The notes under the pieces are model-generated. The model searched no databases. It had not been told where the DNA came from and worked only from the letters and a program-made list of their open reading frames with translations. A stretch of DNA of 64,000 bases, from assembly GCA_963827505.1 (NCBI GenBank), contig CAWHBD010000002.1, positions 393,692 to 457,691 of the forward strand. Direction: 5' to 3'. Source of the DNA: an uncultured Candidatus Rokubacteria bacterium (GTDB lineage: Bacteria; Methylomirabilota; Methylomirabilia; Rokubacteriales; CSP1-6). The position numbers and the translations under genes were made by a program. Below, piece after piece: positions 6,285 through 36,020 of the stretch; the stretch's first letter is position 1; the number at the start of each line of letters is the position of its first letter.

Positions 6285-7150
6285 TGGCCGCACCCGTGTT
6301 CCGTGACTACGATCAGAAGGCCCTCGACGCCGAGTACAACAATCGCGTCAAGGTCAAGAACGCCATGGACTGGATGGCCCGCGCCGGCGGCGAGAGTGCC
6401 CGGACCCGCGCCGAGCTGCCGCTCCGCTTCGACGTACCGTACGGCGCCCATCACGCCGAGCGCCTCGACATCTTCCCGGCCACGCGGCCGGGGCCGGCCC
6501 CGGTGCACGTCTTCATCCACGGGGGCTACTGGCAGCGCATGGACAAGGCCGACTTCAGCTTCGTGGCGCGCGGGCTGGGACCAGCCGGCGCCGCCACCGT
6601 CGTCATCAACTACGGCCTCGTGCCCTCGATCGACCTCGACACGCTCGTGCGGCAGTGCCGCGCCGCCGTGGCCTGGGTGCACCGTCACGCCACCGAGTGG
6701 GGCGGCGATCCCGGTCGGATCTCCATCTCCGGCCACTCGGCCGGCGGCCACCTGGTAGCCATGCTGCTCGCCACCGACTGGCCGGCGCTGGGCGTCCCCG
6801 CCGACGTCGTCAAGTCAGGGTGCGCGGTCAGCGGCCTGTACGACCTCGAGCCCATCCGCCTCTGCTATCTCAATCAGGTCCTGGCACTGACGCCCGAGGT
6901 GGCGCAGCGCAACAGTCCCGTGCTCCTGGCCCCGTCGCGGCCGACGCCGCTCATCCTGGCCCTCGGCGGCGCCGAGGGTCCCGAGTACCACCGGCAGACC
7001 GACGCCCTGGCGGCGGCGTGGCGGGCACGCGGGGTGCCGATCGAGGTGATGGACCTGCCCGGCCACGATCACTTCTCGATCGTCGCCGAGCTCGAATCGC
7101 CGTTCAGCTCGCTTGCACGCGCGATCCAGACGCAGATGGGTCTGGCCTAA
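6284..7150 (+). CDS. Alpha/beta-hydrolase fold esterase (arylformamidase / kynurenine-formamidase-like)
   Basis: Real start is MAAPVFRDYDQKALDAEYNNRVKVKNAMDW (ATG at 6284, TGATG overlap with mtgA). HGGYW oxyanion motif, nucleophile elbow GHSAGGHL, C-terminal HDHF. The long upstream extension in the ORF track (5630..) is an out-of-frame artefact. Confidence 0.8.
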   Translation: MAAPVFRDYDQKALDAEYNNRVKVKNAMDWMARAGGESARTRAELPLRFDVPYGAHHAERLDIFPATRPGPAPVHVFIHGGYWQRMDKADFSFVARGLGPAGAATVVINYGLVPSIDLDTLVRQCRAAVAWVHRHATEWGGDPGRISISGHSAGGHLVAMLLATDWPALGVPADVVKSGCAVSGLYDLEPIRLCYLNQVLALTPEVAQRNSPVLLAPSRPTPLILALGGAEGPEYHRQTDALAAAWRARGVPIEVMDLPGHDHFSIVAELESPFSSLARAIQTQMGLA

Positions 7151-7177
7151 CGTTCGGCCCGCTGGCGCGGGCGGCGC

Positions 7178-7347
7178 CGCTGGGCGGCGGGGGCGGCAGG
7201 GCGACAGGGCCTCCTGAGGTTCCGTTGGCTTCGATCGTGTAGGGCCTCACGTAGGACCAGGCTCCGACCGCGCCTTCGCGCGCCGGGTCGTCTCTCGCGG
7301 AACCGAAGGGGGCCCTGTCGCCCTGCCGCCCCCGCCGCCCACCGGCG
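7178..7347. repeat. Structured intergenic repeat, family 1, copy 1: ~38-bp self-complementary arms around a ~100-bp conserved core
   Basis: Left arm GCTGGGCGGCGGGGGCGGCAGGGCGACAGGGCC pairs with right arm GGCCCTGTCGCCCTGCCGCCCCCGCCGCCCAC. The core ...GGCTTCGATCGTGTAGGGCCTCACGTAGGACCAGGCTCCGAC... is ~90% identical to the reverse complement of 17200-17285. Lies between the convergent esterase and PQQ-dehydrogenase genes. Confidence 0.7.
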
Positions 7348-7394
7348 ATCCCGGCTGGCAGAAGGGCCAACCTCTCTCACGCGACGCGCATCGG

Positions 7395-8576
7395 TTAGCG
7401 TTCGGGCTCCAGGCGGACGATGCGGCCGTTGGGCTCGTCGGTCAGCAGGTAGATGAGGCCGTCGGGGCCTTGGCGGACGTCGCGGATGCGGGCGTTGGGT
7501 GTCAGCGTGTAGCGTTCCTCGGCGGCGACGCGGCCGTTGAGAAGGCGCAGGCGGACGAGGCCGCGGCGCTGCAGTGAGGCGAGGAACAGGTCGCCGCGCC
7601 AGGCGGGGAAGCGGTCGGCCGTGTAGAACAGGGCGCCCGAGGGCGCGATGACGGGATCCCAGTAGTAGACGGGCTGCTCCATCCCCGGGCGCGAAGTGCC
7701 GACGCCGATGCGGGTGCCGGAGTAGTCGACGCCGTAGGTGATGATCGGCCAGCCGTAGTTGCGGCCGGCGCGCGGATTGTTCAGCTCGTCACCGCCACGG
7801 GCGCCGTGCTCGGCCGTCCACAGCTCGCCCCGCGCGTCCAGGGTGGCCCCCTGCACGTTGCGGTGCCCGTATGACCAGATCTCAGGGCGGGCGCCGTCGC
7901 GGCCGACGAACGGGTTGTCGCGGGGGGCCGAGCCATCGGGGTTGATGCGCACGATCTTGCCAATGGTCACCGCCAGGTCCTGGGCGGCGTCGCGCCGGGA
8001 CAATCGGTCGCCGAGCGTGACGAACAGCGTGCCGTCGGGGCGAAACACGAGCCGCGAGCCCCAGTGGAACTCGCTGGTGACCTTAGGCACCTGGCGCCAC
8101 ACCACCTCTGTTCCTTCCAGCCCGCGCTCGCCCAGCCGTCCTCGCGCCACCGCCGTGCCGGCCCCGCCCGCTCCCGGCTCCGAGAAGGACAGGTAGACGA
8201 GCCGATCCTGGGCAAAGCTCGGGCTCAGCGCCACGTCGAGCAGGCCTCCCTGGCCGCCAGTCGCGACCCCCGGCACACCGGCCAGCGGATCGGAAAGGCG
8301 GCCGCTCGGCGCGACGAGCCGCAAGCGCCCCGCCCGCTCGGTGACGAGCAGGCGGCCGTCGGGCAGAAACGCGAGCCCCCACGGATGCTCGAGGCCGCGC
8401 ACGACGTCGATGGCGCGCGCGGGCAGCCGCACCGGGATCGGCGTGGGCGAGCGCGTCGCCTCCTGGGCAAGGGCTGGAAGCCCGAGCAGCACGATGGCGA
8501 CGATCATGCCGAGCCAGAGCTTGCGCGTCGTCGTACATCCGGTCGAGCCGAGGCGGAGAGCCGCTGGTGATGGCAT
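7395..8576 (-). CDS. PQQ-dependent soluble sugar (glucose/sorbosone) dehydrogenase, beta-propeller, secreted
   Basis: MPSPAALRLGSTGCTTTRKLWLGMIVAIVLLGLPALAQEA (signal peptide), then LEHPWGLAFLPDGRLLVTERAGRLRLV, PLAGVP, GQGGLLDVALSP, IWSYGHRNVQG, YGWPIITYG, the hallmarks of the SGDH family. The ORF-track extension above 8576 has no support. Confidence 0.8.
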   Translation of the reverse strand: MPSPAALRLGSTGCTTTRKLWLGMIVAIVLLGLPALAQEATRSPTPIPVRLPARAIDVVRGLEHPWGLAFLPDGRLLVTERAGRLRLVAPSGRLSDPLAGVPGVATGGQGGLLDVALSPSFAQDRLVYLSFSEPGAGGAGTAVARGRLGERGLEGTEVVWRQVPKVTSEFHWGSRLVFRPDGTLFVTLGDRLSRRDAAQDLAVTIGKIVRINPDGSAPRDNPFVGRDGARPEIWSYGHRNVQGATLDARGELWTAEHGARGGDELNNPRAGRNYGWPIITYGVDYSGTRIGVGTSRPGMEQPVYYWDPVIAPSGALFYTADRFPAWRGDLFLASLQRRGLVRLRLLNGRVAAEERYTLTPNARIRDVRQGPDGLIYLLTDEPNGRIVRLEPER

Positions 8577-12349: not shown

Positions 12350-13239
12350 ATGCCCGATCCCTCGTTCGTCTTCGCGCAGTCGATCAGCGGCCTCACGGCG
12401 GCGATGTTCCTGTTCCTCATCGCCTCCGGGCTGTCGCTCATCTTCGGCGTGCTGCGCGTGCTCAACTTCGCGCACGGCACCTTCTACATGCTCGGCGCCT
12501 ACTCGGCTTTCCAGCTCGTGCAGTGGCTGGGCGTGGGCGGCGGCCGGTTCTGGCTGGCCGCGCTGGGCGCCGCCACTGCGGTGGCGCTGCTGGGCGGGAT
12601 CATCGAGCGGCTGCTGTTCCGCCACCTCTACGGCAAGGAGGAGCTCTACCAGCTACTGTTCACTTACGCGCTGGTGCTGATCCTGAGCGACGCCGCGAAG
12701 ATGATCTGGGGCACGCAGCAGAAGTCGGTGAGCCGGCCGCCCGGGCTCGACCGGCGCGCTTCTCGCTCTTCGGCGCCACCATCCCCTACTACAACCTGTT
12801 CATCCTGCTGCTGGGGCCGGCCATCGCGCTCGGCTTCTGGTTCGTGCTGCAGCGCACGCGGGTCGGGCCGCTTCATCCGCGCGGCGGCGCTCGACCGCGA
12901 GACGCTCGGCGCCCTCGGCGTCAACGTCGACGCGCTCTACACGGGCGTCTTCGTGATCGCCTCGTTCCTCGGCGGCCTCGGCGGCGCCCTCGTCACGCCC
13001 GATGCGCGACCATCGTGCCCGGCATGGACACCGAGATCATCGTCGAGGCCTTCGTGGTCGTGGTCATCGGCGGCCTCGGCTCGTTCTGGGGGACCTTCCT
13101 CGGCGCGCTCGTCTACGGCCAGGTGCTGTCGTTCGGCATCCTGTTCTTCCCGCGCTTCTCGATCTTCTCGGTCTTCGCCCTCATGGCCGGCGTGCTCATC
13201 ATCCGGCCGTGGGGCCTGCTGGGCCGCCCGCTCAAGTGA
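12350..13239 (+). pseudogene. livH: Branched-chain amino-acid ABC transporter permease LivH, about 3 frameshifts
   Basis: N-terminus MPDPSFVFAQSISGLTAAMFLFLIASGLSLIFGVLRVLNFAHGTFYMLGAYSAF is intact. Then FSLFGATIPYYNLFILLLGPAIALGFWFVLQRTRVG and IVPGMDTEIIVEAFVVVVIGGLGSFWGTFLGALVYGQ...GLLGRPLK-stop fall in another frame. Confidence 0.55.
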
Positions 13240-14228
13240 TGGCGCAGCTGGCCCGGCTGCCGTGGGGTCTGCTCGTCCTCGTGGCCGCGTTCTGCGTGCC
13301 CGCCGCTCGGCTCGCGCTTCTACACGTTCCTGGCCAACGACATCGTCATCTGGGCGCTGTTCGCCACCAGCCTCAACCTGCTCGTCGGCTACACCGGCCT
13401 GGTGTCGTTCGGCCACGCCGCCTACTTCGGCATCGGCGCCTACACGACCGGGCTCCTGATGAAGAAGCTGGCGGTGCCATTCCTGCTCGCCTTCCCGGCC
13501 GCCGGCGTGGTGGCCGGCGCCTTCGCGCTCGTCTTCGGCTTCTTCTGCGTGCGGCTCACGCGGATCTACTTCGCGATGCTCACGCTGGCCTTCGCCCAGA
13601 TCGTGTGGGCCATCTGCTTCAAGTGGAACGAGGTCACGGGCGGCGAGCAGGGCATGCCGGAGATCCCCTACCCGAGCTTCGACTGGGTGGACGCTCGCCG
13701 GTGCTGCCGCTGGTGGGCGGCTACCGCACGGCGCGAGTACTTCTACTTCCTGACGCTGTGCTGATGGTCGCCCTCTGCCTGTGGCTGCTCCGGCGCATCG
13801 TCGGCTCGCCGTTCGGGCGCATGCTGACGACGATCCGCGAGAACGCCGAGCGCGCGGAGTTCATCGGGGTCAACGTCCGGCGCTACGAGCTGGCCGCCTT
13901 CGTGCTGGCCGGGCGCCTTCGCCGGGCCTCGCCGGCGGGCTCTTCGGCATCTTCAACCGCGGCGTCTTCCCCGACTTCGCCTACTGGACGAAGTCCTCCG
14001 AGGTGCTGATCATGACGCTGCTGGGCGGCATGGGCGCGTTCTACGGCCCCGCCGTCGGCGCCCTCGTGCTGCTCTGGCTCAACCAGCAGATCGTCGTCCT
14101 ACACCGAGTACTGGCCGCTCGTCCTCGGCACCATCCTGGTCATCCTGCTCTTCGTCTTCCCCGGCGGGCTCGCCGGGCGCCGTCGCAGCGCTCGGCAGCC
14201 GGCGCCTGGCGGAGGCCGCGCGCGTGCT
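13236..14228 (+). pseudogene. livM: Branched-chain amino-acid ABC transporter permease LivM, multiple frameshifts
   Basis: MAQLARLPWGLLVLVAAFCVP... then NLLVGYTGLVSFGHAAYFGIGAYTTGLLMKKLAVPFLLAF...IYFAMLTLAFAQIVWAICFKWNEVTGGEQGMPEIP... then MVALCLWLLRRIVGSPFGRMLTTIRENAERAEFIGVNVRRYELAAFVLAG... then GIFNRGVFPDFAYWTKSSEVLIMTLLGGMGAFYGPAVGALVLLWLNQQIVV, across three frames. Confidence 0.55.
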
Positions 14229-14975
14229 TGAGGTGCGCGACGTCCGCAAGAGCTTCGACGGCTTCCAGGCCGTGGGCGGCGTGAGCCTCGACGGTGGCCC
14301 GCGGGCTCGATCAGCGCCATCATCGGTCCCAACGGCGCCGGGCAAGACCACGCTCTTCAACCTGATCACCGGTCACCTCCGGCCCGACGCCGGCCCGTGG
14401 TGCTTCAAGGGCCGCGACATCACCGGCATCGCCCCGCACGACTCTGCCGGCTCGGGCATGGGGCGCTCGTTCCAGCGCACCAACATCTTCCCGCAAGCCT
14501 GACCGTCTACGAGAACGTGCAGGCCGCCTTCCTGTCCCACCGTGGGCGGGGCTGCGAACCTGTTCGAGCCGCGTGGACGCGGCTCTACCGGGACGAGACC
14601 GACGGCGCTGCTGGGCGCGGTCGGCCTGCTCGACCAGCGCCGGGGAGGTCAGTCCGGCTTCCTCTCCCACGGCGCCCAGAAGCAGCTCGAGCTGGGCATC
14701 GCGCTGGCGCTGCGAGCCGGCGCTCCTGCTCCTCGACGAGCCGACGGCCGGCATGTCGGCCACCGAGACGCGCGAGACCATCCGTCTGATCGAGCGCATC
14801 GCCCGCGAGCGCGGCCTGACGCTGCTGTTCACCGAGCACGACATGGAGGTGGTGTTCTCCATCGCCCAGCGCATCACCGTGCTCCACCAGGGCCGGGTGA
14901 TCGCCGAGGGCGCGCCGGCCGAGGTGCGCGCCGATCCCGAGGTGCGCCGCGTCTACCTCGGGCGAGCGCCGGTGA
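14224..14975 (+). pseudogene. livG: Branched-chain amino-acid ABC transporter ATP-binding protein LivG, about 3 frameshifts
   Basis: LEVRDVRKSFDGFQAVGGVSLD...IIGPNGAGKTTLFNLITGHLRPDAGPWCFKGRDITGIAPHDSAGSGMGRSFQRTNIFP (Walker A), then TVYENVQAAFLSHRGRG, then SPTAPRSSSSWASRWRCEP...LLLLDEPTAGMSATE (Walker B)...LFTEHDMEVVFSIAQRITVLHQGRVIAEGAPAEVRADPEVRRVYLGE. Confidence 0.55.
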
Positions 14976-15691
14976 GCACGCCGCCGCCGCTGCTCGAGGT
15001 GCGCGAGACTCCACACCGCCTACGGCCTGTCGCGGTGCTGTTCGGCGTGTCGCTCGAGATGCCGCGCGGGCGAGTGCGTGTGCCTGCTCGGCCGCAACGG
15101 CGTCGGCAAGACCACGACCATGCGCAGCATCATGGGCCTCACCCCGCCGCAGCCGCGGCCGCGTCGTGTGGAAGGGCACGCGACATCACCGGCTGGGCGC
15201 CCTACCGGATCGCCCGCGCCGGGCATCGGCTTCGTGCCCGAGGACCGCCGCATCTTCGCCGACCTGACGGTGTGGGAAAACCTCGACGTGGCGAGCGCGG
15301 CGCCGCCGGCCGGCGGCTTCACGGTCGAGCGCGTCTTCGACCTCTTCCCCAAGCTGCGCGAGCTGTGCGCTCGCGCAACGGTGGCTTCCTCTCCGGCGGC
15401 GAGCAGCAGATGCTCACCATCGCCCGAACGCTCATGGGCAACCCCGAGCTGCTGCTGCTCGACGAGCCGTCCGAGGGGCTGGCGCCGCTGGTGGTCGACC
15501 ACCTGCGCGAGCAGGTCGAACGCCTCAGGCGCGAGGGGCTCACGATCCTGCTCGCCGAGCAGAACGTCGAGTTCTCGCTCGCGCTGGCCGACCGCGTCTA
15601 CGTGCTGGAGAAGGGCTCGATCCGCTTCAGCGGACCGGCCGCGCGCCTTCGCGATGACGAGGCACTGAGGCACGAGCTGCTGGCGCTCTGA
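14972..15691 (+). pseudogene. livF: Branched-chain amino-acid ABC transporter ATP-binding protein LivF, about 3 frameshifts
   Basis: LLEVRET.H.AYG...LFGVSLEMPRGECVCLLGRNGVGKTTTMRSIMGL, then GFVPEDRRIFADLTVWENLDVASAAPPAGGFTVERVFDLFPKLREL, then GGFLSGGEQQMLTIARTLMGNPELLLLDEPSEGLAPLVVDHLREQVERLRREGLTILLAEQNVEFSLALADRVYVLEKGSIRFSGPAARLRDDEALRHELLAL-stop. Confidence 0.55.
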
Positions 15692-15808
15692 CCGCACAAG
15701 GGCCGGGCCCGGCCTCCGACCGGCGGGCGCAAACCCTTCCCGGGGCCGTGCGGTGTGTCATACCATAGACTTCAGTCACGGCTGGCGACCGCGCCAGCGG
15801 AGGGTGGC

Positions 15809-17131
15809 ATGCGGATTCGCTTCTGGGGCACCCGCGGCTCCATCCCCAAGCCGGGCCCGGCCACCGTCCGGTACGGGGGCAATACCTCCTGCGTCGAGGT
15901 CCGGTCCGACGGCACGCTGATCGTGCTCGACTGCGGCACCGGCGCCCACGAGCTGGGCCAGCAACTCGTCACCACCTACCCCGGCCCGATGCGCGGTCAC
16001 CTGCTGATCACTCACACGCACTGGGACCATATCCAGGGCTTCCCGTTTTTCGCGCCGCTGTTCGTTTCCGGCAGCGAGTGGGACGTGTACGCGCCACGCC
16101 AGGTGGGCCGCACGTTGGAGGAGATCCTCGGCGGCCAGATGCACCGCACGTACTTTCCGGTGCCGCTCGGCGAGCTGGCCGCGACCATTCGCTACCACGA
16201 GCTGAGTGAGGGGGCCTTCAACCTCGACGCTGTCCGCGTGACCACCCGCTACATGAACCATCCGGCGCCCGCGCTCGCCTACCGGCTGGAGGCCGGAGGG
16301 GTGGCCGTCGTCTACGCCACCGACCACGAGCCCCACTCGCGCCACCATCCGGAGGCCACCGGCGAGGCCGCGCGGGTGCATCGCGAGGACGCCCGCCACA
16401 TCGAGTTCCTGGCCGGAGCCGACCTGGTGATCCACGACGCGACGTACACGCTAGAGGAGTACCCGGCCCGGCTGTCGTGGGGGCACACGCCGGCCGAGTG
16501 GGCCGTCGACTTCGCGGTGGCGGCGCGAGTCCGCCGGCTCGCCCTCTTCCACCACGAGCCGTCGCGCACCGACCGCGCCATCGACCGGCTCCTCGCCAGC
16601 TGCCGCAAGCGCCTGCCGGCCAAGGACGGCCCCGAGGTGTTCGCGGCCGCCGAGGGCCAGTACCTGGTGGTCGTGCGGCCCGGCGCCACGCCGACGTCGT
16701 CCACGCCGGTGGTCGCCTCCACGGCCGCGCGGATGGCAGCGCCAGAGAAGACGACGATCCTCGTGGCCGACGACGACCCCGACGTGATGGCGGTAATCTT
16801 GGAGACGCTGGAGCCGGAGGGCTACCGGGTCATCACGGCCACCGACGGCGACACCGCGCTGCAGCTCGCCCGCGACGAGCGGCCGGACATCGTCGTGCTC
16901 GACTGGATGATGCCGGGGCAGGACGGGCTGTCCGTGTGCCGGGCGCTGCGTCAGGAGAGCGATCCCAGGCTGGCCGAGGTTCCGGTCGTCCTCATCACCG
17001 GGCGTGCCGACGCCCAGGACACGGCAGCGGGCTTCACCGCCGGCGTGACCGACTACCTCACGAAGCCGTTCAAGCCCACGCACCTCGTCGCACGCCTGCA
17101 GTCCTGGCTCAGCCGCTCGCACAGCGGCTGA
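15809..17131 (+). CDS. MBL-fold metallo-hydrolase (RNase Z / PhnP-like) fused to a C-terminal response-regulator receiver (REC) domain
   Basis: Intact. RBS GGAGGGTGG before ATG 15809. MRIRFWGTRGSIPKPG...VLDCGTG...HLLITHTHWDHIQGFPFF (HxHxDH) in the N-terminal ~300 aa. C-terminal 120 aa: TILVADDDPDVMAVILETLEPEGYRVITATDGDTALQLARDERPDIVVLDWMMPGQDGLSVCRALRQ...VPVVLITGRAD...DYLTKPF, with the phosphoacceptor Asp in VVLDW. Confidence 0.8.
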   Translation: MRIRFWGTRGSIPKPGPATVRYGGNTSCVEVRSDGTLIVLDCGTGAHELGQQLVTTYPGPMRGHLLITHTHWDHIQGFPFFAPLFVSGSEWDVYAPRQVGRTLEEILGGQMHRTYFPVPLGELAATIRYHELSEGAFNLDAVRVTTRYMNHPAPALAYRLEAGGVAVVYATDHEPHSRHHPEATGEAARVHREDARHIEFLAGADLVIHDATYTLEEYPARLSWGHTPAEWAVDFAVAARVRRLALFHHEPSRTDRAIDRLLASCRKRLPAKDGPEVFAAAEGQYLVVVRPGATPTSSTPVVASTAARMAAPEKTTILVADDDPDVMAVILETLEPEGYRVITATDGDTALQLARDERPDIVVLDWMMPGQDGLSVCRALRQESDPRLAEVPVVLITGRADAQDTAAGFTAGVTDYLTKPFKPTHLVARLQSWLSRSHSG

Positions 17132-17157
17132 GCGCGTTCCCCCGCGCCGGCCACGCC

Positions 17158-17330
17158 GGTGCGCGGGGAGCGGGCGATGGAGCGACAGGGTCCCCTTCGG
17201 TTCCGCGAGAGACGACCCGATGCGCCGTGGCATGGTCGGAGCCTGTCCTACGTGTGGCCCTACACGATCGAAGCCAACGGACCCTCAGGAAACCCTGTCG
17301 CTCCATCGCCCGCTCCCCGCGCACCGGCGT
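17158..17330. repeat. Structured intergenic repeat, family 1, copy 2 (core inverted relative to copy 1)
   Basis: Arms CCGGTGCGCGGGGAGCGGGCGATGGAGCGACAGGGTCCCC and GGAAACCCTGTCGCTCCATCGCCCGCTCCCCGCGCACCGG form a perfect ~38-bp stem. The arm sequence differs from copy 1 (GCAGGG vs ATGGAG) but the changes are compensated on the partner arm. Core GGTTCCGCGAGAGACGACCC...GTCGGAGCCTGTCCTACGTGTGGCCCTACACGATCGAAGCCAACGG. Lies between the convergent MBL-REC and hydroxylase genes. Confidence 0.7.
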
Positions 17331-17372
17331 CCCCAACACCGCTTCAGGCGAATCTGAACTTCGGACGGCGGG

Positions 17373-19628
17373 CTACGTCGGGCGGGGGGTGAAGGTCTTC
17401 ACTGAGATGTACTGGTCGGGCCAGGGGAGGTCGAGGCCCTGGTCGCGGGCGGCGTGGCGGGTCCAGTAGGGGTCGTAGAGGTGGGCACGGGCCAGGACGC
17501 AGAGGTCGGCGCGGCCGGCGGCGATGATCGAGTTGACGTCGGCGCTGGAGGCGACGCCGCCGACGGTCATGGTCGGAATGCCGGCCTCGTGGCGGATCCG
17601 GTCGCTGAACGGCGTCTGGAACAGGCGGCCGTGATCGGGCGCCTGATCGGGCACCGTGTTGCCGGCCGACACGTCGACGATGTCACAGCCGTGGGTGCGT
17701 AGCGCGCGCGCCACCTCGACGGCATCCCTCGGCGACAGGCCGCCCTCCTTCCAGTCGGTGGCCGAGAGCCGGACCGAGATGGGCTTGGCGACAGGCCATG
17801 CCGCCCGGACGGCGTCGAAGACCTCGAGCGGGAAGCGCAGGCGGTTGGCGAGCGCGCCGCCGTAGGCATCGGCACGCCGGTTGGTGAGCGGCGACAGGAA
17901 CGACGCCAGCAGGTAGCCGTGGGCGATGTGGAGCTCGAGCAGGTCGAAGCCGGCCTCCTCGGCCATGCGGGTGGCTCGCACGAAGTCGTCGCGCACGGCG
18001 TCCATGTCCCCGCGGTCCATCTCGCGCGGGACCTGGCTGTGCGGGAAGTACGGGATCGGCGACGCCGAGATCAGCGGCCAGTTGCCCTCGGGCAAGGGCT
18101 CGTCGATGCCCTCCCACAGCCGGCGCGTGGAGCCCTTGCGCCCGGCGTGGGCGAGCTGGATGCCGATCCGGGCCGGGCTGGCGCCGTGCACGAAGTCGAC
18201 GATGCGCTTCCACGCGGCCACGTGCTCGGGCTTGTACAGGCCGGTGCAGCCAGGGCTGATGCGCCCGTCGCGGCTGACGTCGGTCATCTCCGTCATCACC
18301 AGCCCCGCCCCGCCGACCGCGCGACTGCCCAGATGCACCAGGTGCCAGTCGCCCGGCGTGCCGTCCTCGGCCGAGTACTGGCACATCGGCGAGACGACGA
18401 CGCGGTTGGACAGCACCAGTCCTCGGAGCCGGAACGGCGTGAACATCGGCGGCGGGAGCGGGGCCGCGGGCACCGTCACGCCGCTCTGCTGCGCAGCCTT
18501 CTCGGCGAGCCAGCCGTCGACCGTGGCCACGAGCTTGGCGTCGCGGGCCTTCAGGCTGTCGTGCGTCACCCGCAGGCTGCGCGTGAGCAGGCTGTAGGCG
18601 AGCTGGGCGGGCTCCAGGCGGCCGTGGTACCGCTCGGTGTGCTCGAACCACTCCAGGCTGCGCTGGGCCGCGCGCTGCAGCGCCTCGACCTGGGGCCGGC
18701 GCTCCGCCTCGTAGGCCGGCAGTGCCCGCCGCACCTCGTCGTGGGCCTGCAGGCTGCGGCTGAGAGCGATGGCGTCCTCCATCGCGAGCTTGGTGCCGGA
18801 GCCGATCGAGAAGTGCGCGGTGTGGGCGGCGTCGCCGACGAGGACGATGTTGTCGTGGTACCAGGCGTCGTTGCGGATGACCGGGAAGGCCCGCCACAGC
18901 GAGCGATTGTTCAAGATCGGATGGCCCTCCAGCTCGCGCGCGAACAGCGCCTGCGCGAACGCCACCGTGTCGTCCTCGCGGGCCTCGTCCAGGCCGGCCC
19001 GCCGCCAGGTGTCCTCCGTGCACTCGAGGATGAACGTCGAGTGGTGGCGGTCGTAGCTGTAGGCGTGCACGCGCCACAGCCCGTGCTCGTCCTCCTTGAA
19101 CATGAAGGTGAAGGCCCGGAACGGGAACGTCGTGCCGAGCCAGACGAACCGGTTGCGGCGCCAGTCGATGCGCGGCCGGAAGTGACGGGCATGGCGCTGG
19201 CGCACCCAGGAGTTCACCCCGTCGGCGGCCAGCACGAGGTCGGCCCCCGCCCACGCCTCCGGCCGATCGACCTCCGTGGAAAAGCGGAGGACCACACCCA
19301 GGTCGGTGGCCCGGGCCTGGAGGATGTCGAGCAGCCGCTGGCGGGAGAGGCCGGCGAAGCCGTGGCCGGTCGAGGTCAACACCTGCCCCCGGTAGTGGAT
19401 ATCGATGTCGTCCCAGTGGGCGAAGGCTCGGGTGATGGCGGCGTGCGTCTCAGGGTCGGCCTCGCGGAAGTTGTCGAGGGTGGCATCGGAGAAGACCACG
19501 CCGAAGCCGAAGGTGTCGTCGGAGCGATTGCGCTCGAGGACGATCACCTCGTGGGCCGGATCGGCCCTCTTCATCAAGATCGCGAGGTACAGGCCGGCCG
19601 GCCCGCCGCCGATCGAGACGATCTTCAC
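17373..19628 (-). CDS. Bifunctional FAD-dependent aromatic monooxygenase / Old Yellow Enzyme oxidoreductase (salicylyl-CoA 5-hydroxylase-like), 751 aa
   Basis: Intact. N-terminus [19 protein letters not shown] (GxGxxG FAD fold)...[27 protein letters not shown] (flavoprotein hydroxylase). C-terminal ~350 aa OYE domain: [42 protein letters not shown]...[12 protein letters not shown]...[26 protein letters not shown]. The domain order matches the gentisate-pathway salicylyl-CoA 5-hydroxylase type. Confidence 0.75.
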
Positions 19629-19644
19629 GCCTTCGATTGTACGA

Positions 19645-20898
19645 TCAGGTGGCCGCCTTGGTCGAACGCGTCATCCGTCGCCATCGCCACCTCGCGCGGG
19701 CCACGAAGAATCGCCACGCCATCTCCAGCCGGTGCCGGCGCAGGCTCGCCTCGCCCAGCGCCACCAGCGCGAAGAGCCGGCACAGCCGGGCGTCGAGCGC
19801 GGCGGCACGGATGATCGCATCGGCCAGGGACGGATTGGCGAACAGCCGGCGCTGGATGCGCACGGAGTCGGCGAGCTCGTCGCCGATCTCCTCGCGCCAG
19901 CGCCTCTCGTAGGCCGCCAGCCGGGCGGCCGAGCCGTCGCCGGCCTGCACGGCGTCGGCCGCCACCTCGCCGGCGTGGCGGCCCGTCACCATCGCGTGGT
20001 AGATCCCCTCGCCCGTGTAGGCGTTGACGAAGCCGCCGGCGTCGCCGCAGACGAGGACACGCTCGGCGTAGGTCCGGGCCAGCGGCCCCCCCAGCGGCAG
20101 CCGGTACGCCTTGAAGTTGGCGGGATTGGAGCGGCCGCGCACGATGCCGCGGGCGGCGACCTCGTCGAGAAACCGCGCGTGGTGCGCGTAGGGCGGCCCG
20201 GTCAGCGTCTGCTTGAAGAACGGCAGCAGGAAGCCGACGCCGAAGTCGACGCAATCCCGCTTGGGGAACACGTAGCCGTACCCGGGCCAGCCCTTGTAAC
20301 CGTAGGCCACGTACATCGTGTCGGGGGCGGCCATCGACAGCTCGGCCAGCGGCGTCTCCTCCATCGTGTCGATGGCCAGCGTCTCCTCGGCAAAGCCCGT
20401 CGTGAGCCCGGCCGCCCGCGCCACCACGCTGTTGACCCCGTCGGCGCCGATCACGAGCCGGGCGGTCAGCGCGCGGCCGTCGACGCAGTGAACCACGACG
20501 CCGTCGGCGCCGGGCTCGATCCCCGTCACCCGTGCGCGCTCCAGGACCCGGGCGCCCTCGGCGCGGGCCCGGGCCAGCAGGGCGGCGTCGAGCTCGGTGC
20601 GGCGCAGCGTGAGGTAGAACGGCGCATCGCCGGAGGCCGTCACGGCATGGCCGGCCGGCGACTCCATCAGCACGCGGTGGATCTCGTGGATGGCCACCGT
20701 CGAGCGCAGGTGCTCGGCGAGATCGGGGAAGCGCCGGTAGACCCCGTAGCGAATGCCACCGCCGCACGGCTTGTCGCGCGGAAAGGGCTTCTTGTCGAGG
20801 ACGAGGACGTCGACGCCGCGCCGGGCCAGGGCCAGCGCGGCGAGCGACCCGGCCGGACCACCGCCGACCACGATCACCGCCGCGTCCACGTCTCGCAT
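19645..20898 (-). CDS. Geranylgeranyl-reductase-family FAD-dependent oxidoreductase
   Basis: Start [49 protein letters not shown] (GGR family signature), ...[19 protein letters not shown]. 417 aa, intact. The ORF-track N-terminal extension to 21114 is antisense to lhr. Confidence 0.75.
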
Positions 20899-34043: not shown

Positions 34044-34448
34044 ATGCCCCACCAGCCGACCGCCGCCACCGAATTCCGGCGCGGCCTGAATGGCTACAAC
34101 CTGACGGTCGGCCTGATCGCGTCGCTCGCGCTCGGCGGGGCCGTACTACTGGCGACTGCGACCGGCCTCGGCCCCGACCTGCTCGGCCGCGGCGCCGCGC
34201 CGCAAGCCGCCGTCGCCGCACTCGCCCTCTTCGTGGTGATCACTGCCATCCACACGGCCGTGCACACCTACCTCGGCTGGCGCTTCGACCGCGGCATCCG
34301 GGCCGCCACCGCCGGCGACCACCCCCGCGCCGTCCGCCTCCTCATCCCCGTCACCCGTCCCGGCCTGGACCACTATGACCCCGACGGCACCGCCCGCCAC
34401 ACCCTGGAATCGAGCCGCGCCGAAGTTCAGCGAACCGCCCGCCGCTAG
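34044..34448 (+). CDS. Hypothetical membrane protein (2 predicted TM helices)
   Basis: 134 aa, hydrophobic segments LTVGLIASLALGGAVLLATA and AVAALALFVVITAIHTAV. Coding-like GC3 bias. No family recognised. Confidence 0.35.
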   Translation: MPHQPTAATEFRRGLNGYNLTVGLIASLALGGAVLLATATGLGPDLLGRGAAPQAAVAALALFVVITAIHTAVHTYLGWRFDRGIRAATAGDHPRAVRLLIPVTRPGLDHYDPDGTARHTLESSRAEVQRTARR

Positions 34449-34459
34449 TCTCCCTGGTC

Positions 34460-34665
34460 GATGATTCGCCCCCCGGGTTGCGGTGGGGGAGTCCGGTGCT
34501 CGGGGTGGGGTCCGTGGACCCGTTCCCGCCAACCATCACCGTACGCCCCCCAGCCTGATGGAGCCCAGCCGCCAACGGCCCGATGCGGACTCCAGCCCCG
34601 TGGTGCCACGGACCCCACCCCGAGCACCGGACTCCTCCACCGCAACACGGGCCGGACGAATCGCC
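34460..34665. repeat. Large inverted repeat / hairpin element: ~57-bp arms, 88-bp spacer
   Basis: GATGATTCGCCCCCCGGGTTGCGGTGGGGGAGTCCGGTGCTCGGGGTGGGGTCCGTGG (34460-34517) is near-perfectly complementary to CCACGGACCCCACCCCGAGCACCGGACTCCTCCACCGCAACACGGGCCGGACGAATCGCC (34606-34665). It sits 12 nt after the stop of the + gene and 11 nt before the stop of the convergent amidase. Confidence 0.65.
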
Positions 34666-34675
34666 GCTCCGGAGA

Positions 34676-36020
34676 CTAGGCGGCGGGCGAGACCGCTCCC
34701 ACCAGCCAGCGTGCGGTGCGCAGGAGACGCGCATCGCCGTGGCGAGGCCCGACGAGCTGGACACCGAGCGGCAGGCCGTTAGCGCCGCGCATGATGGGCA
34801 CGCTGATGGCGGGCATCCCGGCGAGCGTCCACAGCGCGCAGAAGGCCGGATCGCCGGTCGAGTCGAGTCCCGCCGGCGCCGTGCCGGGGGCGGCCGGGGT
34901 CAGGATGGCGTCGTAACGCTGCTCGAACAGCTCCGTGAAGCTCGCCTGCAGCTCGGGGATGCGGGCCAGCGCGCGCAGGTAGTGGGGGGCGCGCACCTCG
35001 TGGCCGCGCTCGATGCTGGCCCGCAGCGAGTTCGACAGCCCCGCCCGTCCGGTCCGCCATTCCCGGTCGAGGTTCACCGCCAGCTCGGCGTTCATGATGG
35101 TGCGATGCCACTCGGCCGTCTCCGCGGCCGGCCTCACCAGCTCCACCTCCTCTAGGCGATCGCCGAGCACGGCGGCCAGCTCCTCGAAGGCCTCGCGGGC
35201 GTCGGGGTCGACCGCGTCCCACATCGTCGTCTTCACGAAAGCGAACATCGGCGGCAGCGGGGGCTCCTCGCCAGCGAGCTGCCGGTAGGGCACACGCGCG
35301 CGTGGCCGGGTGTCGGGATCACGCTCGTCGTGGCCGGCCAGCTGCTCCAGTAAGCAGAGCGAGATCGTCGATGGAGCGCGCGAACAGCCCCACGTGATCC
35401 AGCGTGCGCGAGAGCTGGAACATGCCGTGGCGCGGAATCAGCCCGTGGGTCGGCTTGAGGCCGTACACGCCGCAGTAGGAGGCGGGCCGGATGGTGGAGC
35501 CGCCGGTCTGGCTGCCGAGCGCCAGCGGGACCATGCCCGCCGCCACCGCCGCCGCCGAGCCGCTCGACGATCCACCCGGCGTGTGGGCCGGGTCGTGCGG
35601 GTTGCGCGTCTTGCCCGGCTGTCGCGTCGCGAACTCCGTGGTCACCGTCTTGCCCAGGATGACCGCGCCCGCCCCCCGCAGCATCGCCGTCACGCTCGCG
35701 TCCCGGGAAGGCGTCCGGCCGGCGTGCAGCACCGAGCCGTTCTCGGTCGGCATGTCGGCGGTGTCGATGATGTCCTTCAAGGCCACCGGCACGCCGTGCA
35801 GCGGCCCGATCACTCGGCCCGACATCCGCGCCTCGTCCGCCGCCCTCGCCTGCCCCAGCGCCAGCTCCGGGTCCAGGAAGGTCCACGCCTCGACGTCCCG
35901 ATCGACGGCCCGGATGCGCGCCAGGCACGCCTCGACCAGCTGCTCCGAGCTGATCACCCCATCCCGAATCAGCCGCGCCCCCTCCCCCGCCGACACCGCA
36001 TACAGATCCGTCAAATCCAT
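34676..36020 (-). pseudogene. Amidase (amidase-signature family, GatA-like), single frameshift near 35325-35345
   Basis: N-terminal 233 aa intact, including the GGSSSGSAAAVAAG signature and VPVALKDII. The C-terminal 200 aa sit in the other frame (…GLPLGVQLVGPRHGDARLL). A 1-nt indel at ...IDDLALL|LEQLAGHDERDP. Confidence 0.6.

Follow-up and report, generated by a model that had tools for sequence, protein, structure and literature searches.

Mirrored arm changes in a palindromic, MITE-like repeat family of Candidatus Rokubacteria as a likely by-product of concerted evolution of the arms

Two long hairpins in the window (the whole stretch of 64,000 nucleotides of DNA that was analysed) are copies of an undescribed repeat family of Candidatus Rokubacteria (Methylomirabilota). 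The family is new, but it is of a fairly ordinary kind: its members are palindromic elements and very probably MITEs. The two arms of each hairpin change together from copy to copy. This covariation is real, and it is most likely a by-product of concerted evolution of the arms at the DNA level.

The inverted repeat of copy 2 lies where a preliminary description of this DNA had placed it (Table 1). Its arms are 91% complementary over 53 nt, are separated by 72 nt and form a hairpin of 178 nt, in which the outer 39 bp are all Watson-Crick pairs while every mismatch is confined to the inner 14 bp. On the minus strand, positions 17197-17198 opposite 17285-17286 read as tandem G.A/A.G (T.C/C.T on the plus strand) and positions 17192-17193 opposite 17290-17291 as U.G wobbles. 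When folded against shuffled controls, copy 2 was far better than the controls on both strands, with z-scores of -9.7 (plus strand) and -11.3 (minus strand) for RNA and of -9.5 (plus strand) and -11.1 (minus strand) for DNA. Folding of the minus strand surpassed that of the plus strand by about 5 kcal/mol (DNA) to 14 kcal/mol (RNA). Open reading frames that cross the element are only spurious high-GC frames. Two further statements of the preliminary description were borne out as well: copy 2 is situated between convergent stop codons, and it is inverted relative to copy 1, the plus strand of which aligns with the minus strand of copy 2. The Pfam domains Lactamase_B_2 and Response_reg were found on an orthologue of the gene that reads into copy 2 on the plus strand.

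Copy 2 is old, and its ends are eroded. One terminal inverted repeat is left as a remnant at 17347-17366, which reads GGCGAATCTGAACTTCGGAC (reverse complement GTCCGAAGTTCAGATTCGCC) where the family repeat is GTCCCGAGTCAGAAATTCGC. The other is gone; in an intact member, another outer arm with its terminal repeat would fall where copy 2 has the spacer behind the TGA stop. The remaining outer arm is unpaired because its partner has been lost. The TA within the adjoining CTA is the putative target dinucleotide.

Table 1. Hairpin elements of the window, their parts and the stop codons next to them.
Feature	Position	Strand	Remarks
Copy 1, paralogue of copy 2 in opposite orientation	7172-7350	+	Flanked by TAA stops at 7148-7150 and 7395-7397
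TGA stop of the MBL-fold and response-regulator gene (ORF 15755-17131)	17129-17131	+	Gene reads into the element
Spacer from TGA stop to hairpin, 21 nt	17132-17152		Second outer arm and terminal repeat missing here in copy 2
Arm A of the copy 2 hairpin, 53 nt	17153-17205		17153-17191 pairs perfectly with 17292-17330
Inner-stem irregularities in arm A of copy 2	17192-17198	-	
Loop ('core') of copy 2, 72 nt	17206-17277	-	Minus-strand reading begins TTGGCTTCGATCGTGTAGGGCC
Arm B of the copy 2 hairpin, 53 nt	17278-17330		
Decayed outer arm of copy 2	17331-17372	-	Now unpaired, partner lost
CTA, the TAG stop of the convergent FAD_binding_3/Oxidored_FMN gene (17373-19628)	17373-17375	-	Adjoins the eroded end of the element
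Sister-family element with a different loop	34445-34679		46-nt arms, 96% complementary; termini CTAGTCTCCCTGGTCGATGATTCG ... CGAATCGCCGCTCCGGAGACTAG

Related copies were collected from genomes and metagenomes; the letter L with a number labels the locus of a related sequence that was compared with the window. When two conserved loop segments were used as exact patterns against a collection with one genome per species, 12 loci were returned, 11 of which belong to one Candidatus Rokubacteria MAG and one to a Methylomirabilia MAG. Among them, L006 is syntenic with positions 12941-20418 of the window at 90-95% identity and holds the orthologue of copy 2. In metagenomes, an exact-pattern search for 22 nt of loop sequence yielded 70 soil contigs, many of which end within the element, and a covariance model built on the first 14 copies recovered about 59 full-length copies. 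Besides the two copies in the window, the family as assembled here comprises about 70 others, of which 13 come from the 12 MAG loci and about 55 from contigs of metagenomes. Paralogues agree best in the loop and vary most in the middle of the arms; as both collection scans were queried with loop sequence, the apparent conservation of the core is partly a matter of ascertainment, but it also holds between copy 1 and copy 2. Subfamilies exist with distinct arms, each set being internally complementary, and the 5' part of the Family-1 core recurs with unrelated arms in other families (L081/L084/L065 and L046/L087).

The element is common in Rokubacteria from soil, and it appears to be abundant, given two copies within 64 kb. 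Copies at non-orthologous loci with unrelated flanks reach identities of up to 95-97% over about 250 nt, and such near-identical copies indicate a recent spread in some populations. The core pattern had no match in a scan of viral contigs, nor did an intact long-form copy in a plasmid collection, and a literature search for palindromic repeats or MITEs in Rokubacteria returned nothing relevant.

Intact members measure about 249 nt, with a loop of about 73 nt enclosed by arms of about 88 bp each. Both arms terminate in the conserved repeat (C)TAGTGTCCCGAGTCAGAAATTCG, with CTAG as the flanking sequence; the long forms carry CTAGTGTCCCGAGTCAGAAATTCG at both ends. The terminal repeat has the consensus (C)TAGTGTCCCG[A/T][G/C]TCAGAAATTCG at both ends of more than 20 copies, and many metagenomic copies show the long-form ends CTAGTGTCCCG(A/T)(G/C)TCAGAAATTCG ... 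CGAATTTCTGA..CGGGACACTAG. The elements are short by the measure of MITEs (less than about 500 bp) and non-coding, are bounded by conserved terminal repeats, occur as dispersed copies and are polymorphic for presence and absence, all of which are attributes of MITEs. The preliminary description had reasoned against a transposon, since terminal inverted repeats recognized by a transposase should be conserved between copies. This reasoning fails because the true terminal inverted repeats fall outside the arms that had been flagged and are conserved between intact copies; those of copy 2 are eroded, and empty orthologous sites reveal insertion.

Such sites were present at the copy 2 junction itself, where the insertion was absent in three groups of related genomes and another repeat family took the place in further relatives. 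In L013, a 3.28-Mb contig of about 87% identity, only GCGCCGCGG lies between both stop codons, and copy 1 is absent from this syntenic relative too. The convergent genes of L098-L101 overlap and are free of an element. A different hairpin repeat is located at the junction in L014-L023 and L096/L097, and the contigs break there. The Family-1 element occupies the junction in the window and in L006, L024, L025, L033 and L038. Since the junction is empty or differently filled in relatives, the Family-1 element at this place is an insertion.

The termini and flanks imply mobilization in trans by a DDE-type transposase, which would either insert at the TA of CTAG like that of IS630/Tc1-mariner elements or duplicate CTAG like that of IS5 elements. 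IS630/Tc1-mariner elements duplicate TA. GTAG...CTAC is the reading in both L008 and copy 2, and duplication of TA accounts for it better than a direct repeat of 4 bp does; duplication of CTAG is possible for IS5-related MITEs (PMC3189936). We infer the transposase family and the exact target duplication from these features. A 6-bp NCTAGN duplication of the IS481 type was ruled out, as the bases beside CTAG are not repeated. In about 480 kb of loci, we found neither a pair of terminal repeats 1-2 kb apart nor a transposase gene between such termini. Insertion of the core into pre-existing host palindromes was likewise ruled out: no core-less Family-1 palindromes were detected in about 540 kb, and the apparent short-loop matches of that search represent an arm-like motif inside the loop.

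The sister-family element of the window (Table 1) has termini of the same class as Family-1, with CTAG at each end; these two CTAGs contain the TAG codons at which two convergent ORFs stop. Among orthologues, a clean empty site for this intact element was sought and not obtained. In the best orthologue, L102, a whole neighbouring gene is absent and the C-terminus is different, which is not a simple empty site.

Family-1 elements are strongly associated with stop codons. Using crude, GC3-based gene calls, we found TAG stops in 46 and CTAG in 32 of the 64 genes that read into an element, versus 125 and 32 of the 315 background genes in the same sequences (Fisher P=4e-12 for the enrichment of CTAG at element-facing stops). 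CTAG is rare in the window (17 observed versus 76 expected). In this high-GC genome, CTAG is found mainly as a TAG stop preceded by C, and elements would land there. Insertion at the TA of CTAG by an element that starts with G and ends with C would regenerate a TAG stop on each side, and elements that land on stop codons and regenerate them would build up between convergent genes. Copy 1 and copy 2 both sit between convergent genes, a location that follows from the preference of the elements for TAG stops. The hairpin may incidentally block read-through between convergent genes, but the pattern can be explained without this.

Between copy 1 and copy 2 there are 13 edits on one arm and 10 on the other. 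Ten edits, including a 2-nt indel, are mirrored on the partner arm and three affect a single arm, so that the preliminary statement that every change is mirrored holds for 10 of 13. The loops of the two copies differ at 9 of 73 positions. Mirrored arm changes as such are real, statistically strong and general over some 60 copies. In an alignment of 59 copies, double-sided changes were present in 32 of the 35 pairs of the long helix, 96% of its cells were paired, and none of 500 shuffles reached the observed level. This strong covariation is restricted to the long stem, whereas no internal covariation was supported in the loop (no double-sided changes in helices 3 and 4, and two in helix 5). 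An ungapped, model-independent count over the outer arms gave 1668 Watson-Crick, 50 G.T, 28 A.C and 31 other combinations. The outer arms are thus 94% Watson-Crick paired, and the excess of G.T over A.C is modest (P=0.017).

Clustering of the loci by their flanks resulted in 14 orthologous groups, of which 12 were analysed. The twelve orthologous pairs contained 24 mirrored edits, several of them 1-nt indels, along with 37 edits on one arm only. At most 4.7 positions would be shared by chance, and 0 of 2000 simulations reached 24. Mirrored changes, indels included, hence arise in situ between orthologous copies, that is, between related strains at a fixed locus. The window and L038, with flanks that are 99-100% identical, are one mirrored T:A to G:C transversion apart. 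At the same site the arms of L024 are mixed, one with T and its partner with G; this is a noisy long-read assembly with many indels, and some single-arm differences may therefore be assembly errors. Mirrored 1-nt insertions distinguish L001 from L032 and L003 from L076, four mirrored substitutions separate L046 from L087, and mirrored segments of 10-12 nt set subfamilies apart. L025 carries one arm of each allele, and its arms are mismatched; it may have been joined wrongly in assembly or be a true recombinant.

Two kinds of evidence that the preliminary description had named as adverse to selection on the hairpin were encountered in part. Non-compensated arm mutations exist, both in the ungapped count over the outer arms (109 of 1777 cells) and as the one-arm edits between orthologues. 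An origin of the arms by duplication and inversion within each locus has a partial counterpart in the mirrored indels, which look like one arm copied from the other.

Mirrored arms are, on balance, best explained by DNA-level copying from one arm to the other. In such concerted evolution, a change in one arm would be either reverted or transferred to the partner arm, and each copy would drift in sequence yet remain a near-perfect palindrome. We infer the copying mechanism itself; the route would be intramolecular template switching during replication (quasipalindrome correction) or, alternatively, short-tract gene conversion between the inverted repeats. Through template switching, imperfect inverted repeats have been shown to become perfect, and hairpins to be made and kept by one-step 'compensatory' changes (PMC5941160, PMC8794818). 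Four points favour templated correction over selection at the RNA level: pairing is nearly strictly Watson-Crick, the loop lacks covariation, the sense strand has no biased orientation relative to the upstream gene (12 versus 20, P=0.22) and the length of the stems makes selection on single pairs improbable. For a GC-rich stem of 50-90 bp, the effect of one mismatch should be nearly neutral: stability would barely shift, and per-pair selection would therefore be too weak to account for about 95% pairing. Two independent mutations would, moreover, seldom give mirrored indels or mirrored multi-nucleotide segments.

Substitution rates of the arms between orthologues resemble those of flanks and loop, which fits copying better than purifying selection. 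This rate argument is weak because the scatter between orthologous pairs is wide. The comparison of the window with L006 had suggested an outer stem that evolves faster than neutral, but this is not general, since arm rates of the other orthologous pairs are close to those of flank and loop.

Several observations count against arm-to-arm copying. First, the tandem G.A/A.G, in a favourable Py-GA-Pu context, and the U.G wobble are present in about 70% of the copies, always on the same strand. Efficient copying should erase both, and their persistence may point to a constraint that is specific to this strand. Inspection of the tandem G.A showed neither a three-way junction nor a 3-nt bulge, so that a hammerhead-like motif and a kink-turn were rejected. 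Second, the outer arms and terminal repeats have decayed in the window and in the MAG while 47-53 bp of inner stem are still perfect there, as a functional unit of defined length would also predict. The better folding of the minus strand of copy 2 and the excess of G.T over A.C likewise leave room for a strand-specific constraint.

The one-strand irregularities and the lasting inner stem would be expected if the host selected the element as a functional stem-loop of RNA or single-stranded DNA, for example as a bidirectional terminator, an insulator, a protector of mRNA 3' ends or a structured small RNA, with pairing held by true compensatory substitutions. The position between convergent stop codons, the very stable folding of both strands, the strong covariation of the stem and the excess of G.T over A.C agree with this explanation. 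If both strands were transcribed, the need for Watson-Crick pairing on both would also explain why G.U pairs are scarce. However, the position is accounted for by the choice of CTAG/TAG as target, and the structure is evidently not required in relatives whose genes abut or overlap at the empty junction. No match to Rfam was obtained at the gathering score over the whole window, and at E<=10 over the copy 2 locus only sub-threshold models of miRNA precursors were returned, which we ascribe to a long-hairpin artefact. A search for tRNA and tmRNA and scans for promoter and terminator consensus sequences found nothing, no terminator-like site was detected on either strand of 16900-17600, and no T-run that could serve as a U-tract flanks the stem of copy 2. 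The absence of loop covariation and of orientation bias, the mirrored indels and segments, which two independent mutations are unlikely to produce, and the presumably negligible selection on any one base pair of so long a stem (50-90 bp) speak against host selection too. Selection on the hairpin, as proposed in the preliminary description, is unneeded and fits worse than DNA-level copying, and we consider a host-selected structure unlikely.

A narrower version, to which we give still less credence, is that the inner hairpin of 47-53 bp with its conserved core was recruited by the host or forms the unit of selection itself. This reading has its basis in the hairpin that outlasts the terminal repeats, the 5' part of the core that occurs with unrelated arms and the one-strand irregularities. 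If true, the hairpin with its core would be a structured module of RNA or single-stranded DNA that is recognized by a protein, and its long, variable stem would stay paired to serve this role. Where convergent genes of Rokubacteria end, it could act, for example, as a bidirectional terminator, an insulator or a site of processing.

The hairpin might instead be needed for mobilization as single-stranded DNA, as in REPIN/RAYT systems or in IS200/IS605-like PATEs. Only masters with an intact hairpin would then propagate, every copy in a genome would descend in perfect form from a master that had diversified, and the mirrored differences would record the history of master lineages. REPINs have a similar architecture, and compensatory changes in their hairpins were noted to be common (PMC3116915). 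The conserved one-strand irregularities, the subfamilies with distinct but internally complementary arms and the young, near-identical copies at unrelated loci are also in line with this idea. Against it, mirrored changes also separate orthologues at a fixed locus, where no transposition took place, and the conservation is opposite to that of REPINs. Moreover, the long symmetric terminal repeats and CTAG point to a DDE transposase, not to a Y1/HUH enzyme, and no RAYT gene was seen at the loci compared. Mobilization of this type is therefore improbable. Finally, mirrored changes in situ could represent replacement of the whole element by gene conversion from a paralogue or by independent re-invasion, in which both arms shift together as the donor itself is palindromic; two repeat families did colonize the copy 2 junction independently, L025 with one arm per allele could reflect recombination in the core (or assembly mimicry) and L011 and L093 differ throughout the element and in one flank, but a single mirrored change with the rest of the element the same (window versus L038; L007 versus L054) and the need for a separate mechanism that makes donors perfect palindromes render this very doubtful.

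Arm-to-arm copying has a consequence beyond this family. If a palindromic mobile element can be homogenized at the DNA level, 'compensatory covariation' of a long stem, even of textbook appearance, is not evidence of a functional RNA. Covariation tests in RNA discovery hence need a caveat for palindromic elements, and a tempting false positive is removed here. Mirrored transversions, mirrored indels and a mixed intermediate occur in the orthologous series, which is suited as natural material to measure the correction of arms in long inverted repeats. A repeat family is now documented for Rokubacteria/Methylomirabilota, an abundant uncultured soil phylum, and its members break short-read assemblies at gene ends. 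The way in which rare CTAG/TAG stop codons would be hit and then regenerated amounts to a tidy insertion strategy.

ERIC, BOX and RUP are repeats whose long-hairpin transcripts affect mRNA stability or termination. Like them, the Rokubacteria element is an imperfect palindrome of 100-250 nt at the 3' ends of genes. ERIC, BOX and RUP are co-transcribed with their neighbours and have no sequence relationship to the element. With REPINs (PMC3116915), it shares two inverted arms, a spacer of about 70 nt, a long hairpin, an extragenic location, multiple copies and compensatory changes. However, REPINs combine invariant arm ends (the REP 16-mers) with a less conserved, variable spacer. The Rokubacteria element, whose loop is conserved and whose arms vary most in the middle, has no invariant REP in its arms. 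Unlike the RAYT-mobilized REPINs, it also possesses separate terminal repeats and CTAG flanks.

Quasipalindrome correction by template switching during replication is a likely parallel: there, imperfect repeats are perfected by one-step 'compensatory' substitutions and indels, and perfect repeats were reported to be conserved between related genomes beyond neutral expectation (PMC5941160, PMC7202029, PMC8794818). That work mostly dealt with short repeats (arms of 5-20 bp and short spacers) and experimental hotspots, whereas the arms here measure 50-90 bp, their spacer measures about 73 nt and the whole is part of a mobile element. As the mechanism, gene conversion between the arms that depends on RecA stands on an equal footing with template switching.

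MITEs of the IS630/Tc1-mariner type, among them the Correia elements and the plant Stowaway elements, target TA. Together with these, MITEPsy1 of Pseudomonas syringae, which is IS5-related and has a 4-nt CTAG/YTAA duplication (PMC3189936), is the closest known counterpart of the Rokubacteria element. Like these MITEs, the Rokubacteria element is small, non-coding and dispersed, has conserved terminal repeats with CTAG at both ends, is intergenic and polymorphic for insertion among related genomes, and can be folded as a whole into a long hairpin. It differs from known MITEs in its unusually long arms (about 88 bp), which make it palindromic almost from end to end, in its occurrence in an uncultured phylum that has no described insertion-sequence partner for it, and in its very strong link to TAG stop codons.

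Beyond the 50-bp stem of copy 1 of the Family-1 element (a palindromic, MITE-like repeat with two arms and a conserved loop, or core), pairing continues imperfectly into the flanks, with indels. This copy fills its whole intergenic gap, and at both of its extreme ends the family's terminal G/C has possibly given way to A/T; the change would then be a mirrored one. The window also contains an intact-looking sister element, whose termini are of the Family-1 class and whose two ends are both CTAG. These end CTAGs are the TAG stops of two convergent ORFs, 34044..34448 (+) and 34676..35293 (-, amidase). In the window as a whole, CTAG is strongly avoided (17 observed versus 76 expected from dinucleotide-preserving shuffles); ORF ends coincide with several of the 17.

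Repeat elements and palindromes in the window and in related loci (L numbers)
Feature	Position	Details
Copy 1, whole gap	window 7147-7397	filled between two TAA stops: CTAA 7147-7150, TTAG 7394-7397
Sister element, intact-looking	window 34445-34679	46-nt arms, 96% complementary; loop unlike Family-1
Variant elements	L084 around 2293, minus strand; L065 3745 and 3911	
Different repeat family	L014-L023, e.g. L019 3750-3936; L096/L097 2824-2952	directly past response-regulator gene in L014-L023
Unrelated perfect hairpin	L014-L016 (L014 2256-2352)	34-bp stem, 29-nt loop; between ABC substrate-binding and permease genes

The outer arms were asymmetric in the MAG and window lineage. One of them was short or missing in five related loci (L001, L004, L005, L010 and L011) and in copy 2 (window 17132-17152), always on the same side, namely the right for an element oriented like copy 1. 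There the stem lies 2-14 nt from CTAG, and the opposite outer arm persists as a long decayed tail. A 95%-identity orthologue of copy 2 (L025, 1560-1745) combined one arm of the window type with another of the type found in the MAG orthologue L006, giving about 10 mismatches in 45 bp. These mixed arms come either from natural recombination, with the crossover inside the conserved core, or from a chimera of short-read assembly.

We also observed that in the copy 2 loop (window 17232-17240, minus-strand GACAGGCTC), and at the equivalent place in other copies, the left-arm motif GACAGGGTC recurs in nearly the same form; this stretch could form an alternative helix with the right arm. The 5' arm, in the orientation of copy 1, is G-rich (e.g. 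L003 2660-2690 and window 7186-7210) and the 3' arm correspondingly C-rich. Many family copies matched a G-quadruplex motif in the 5' arm, GGGG-C-GGG-CGGC-GGGG-CGACA-GGG.

Four variants (L081, L084, L074 and L065) share with Family-1 the core's 5' portion (TCCGTTGGCTTCGATCGTGTAG). Their arms (GGCGCCGGGCGGGCGCCCGGGCTCGCTCAGCAT...) are unrelated to those of Family-1, yet are again self-complementary. L065 harbours two such units in tandem, spaced 166 nt apart, and L046/L087 form a further subfamily of this core-sharing kind.

At the convergent-gene junction of copy 2, other lineages (L014-L023, L096/L097) carry a different repeat family, GGTGGGGGGCCCCGAAATGGCCCCCCAC...CGGCGCGCCCCGGCACAGCCGTGGCGCGCCTCGATAGCG, at times in tandem, and short-read contigs end inside it. 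Several kinds of long intergenic palindromes are present in the L014-L016 genomes. The gene upstream of copy 2 (window 15755-17131) is kept across many Rokubacteria contigs, with identities from 100% down to about 63%. It encodes an MBL-fold hydrolase fused to a C-terminal receiver domain and has weak precomputed matches to the Anti-Pycsar Apyc1 family (PF23023).
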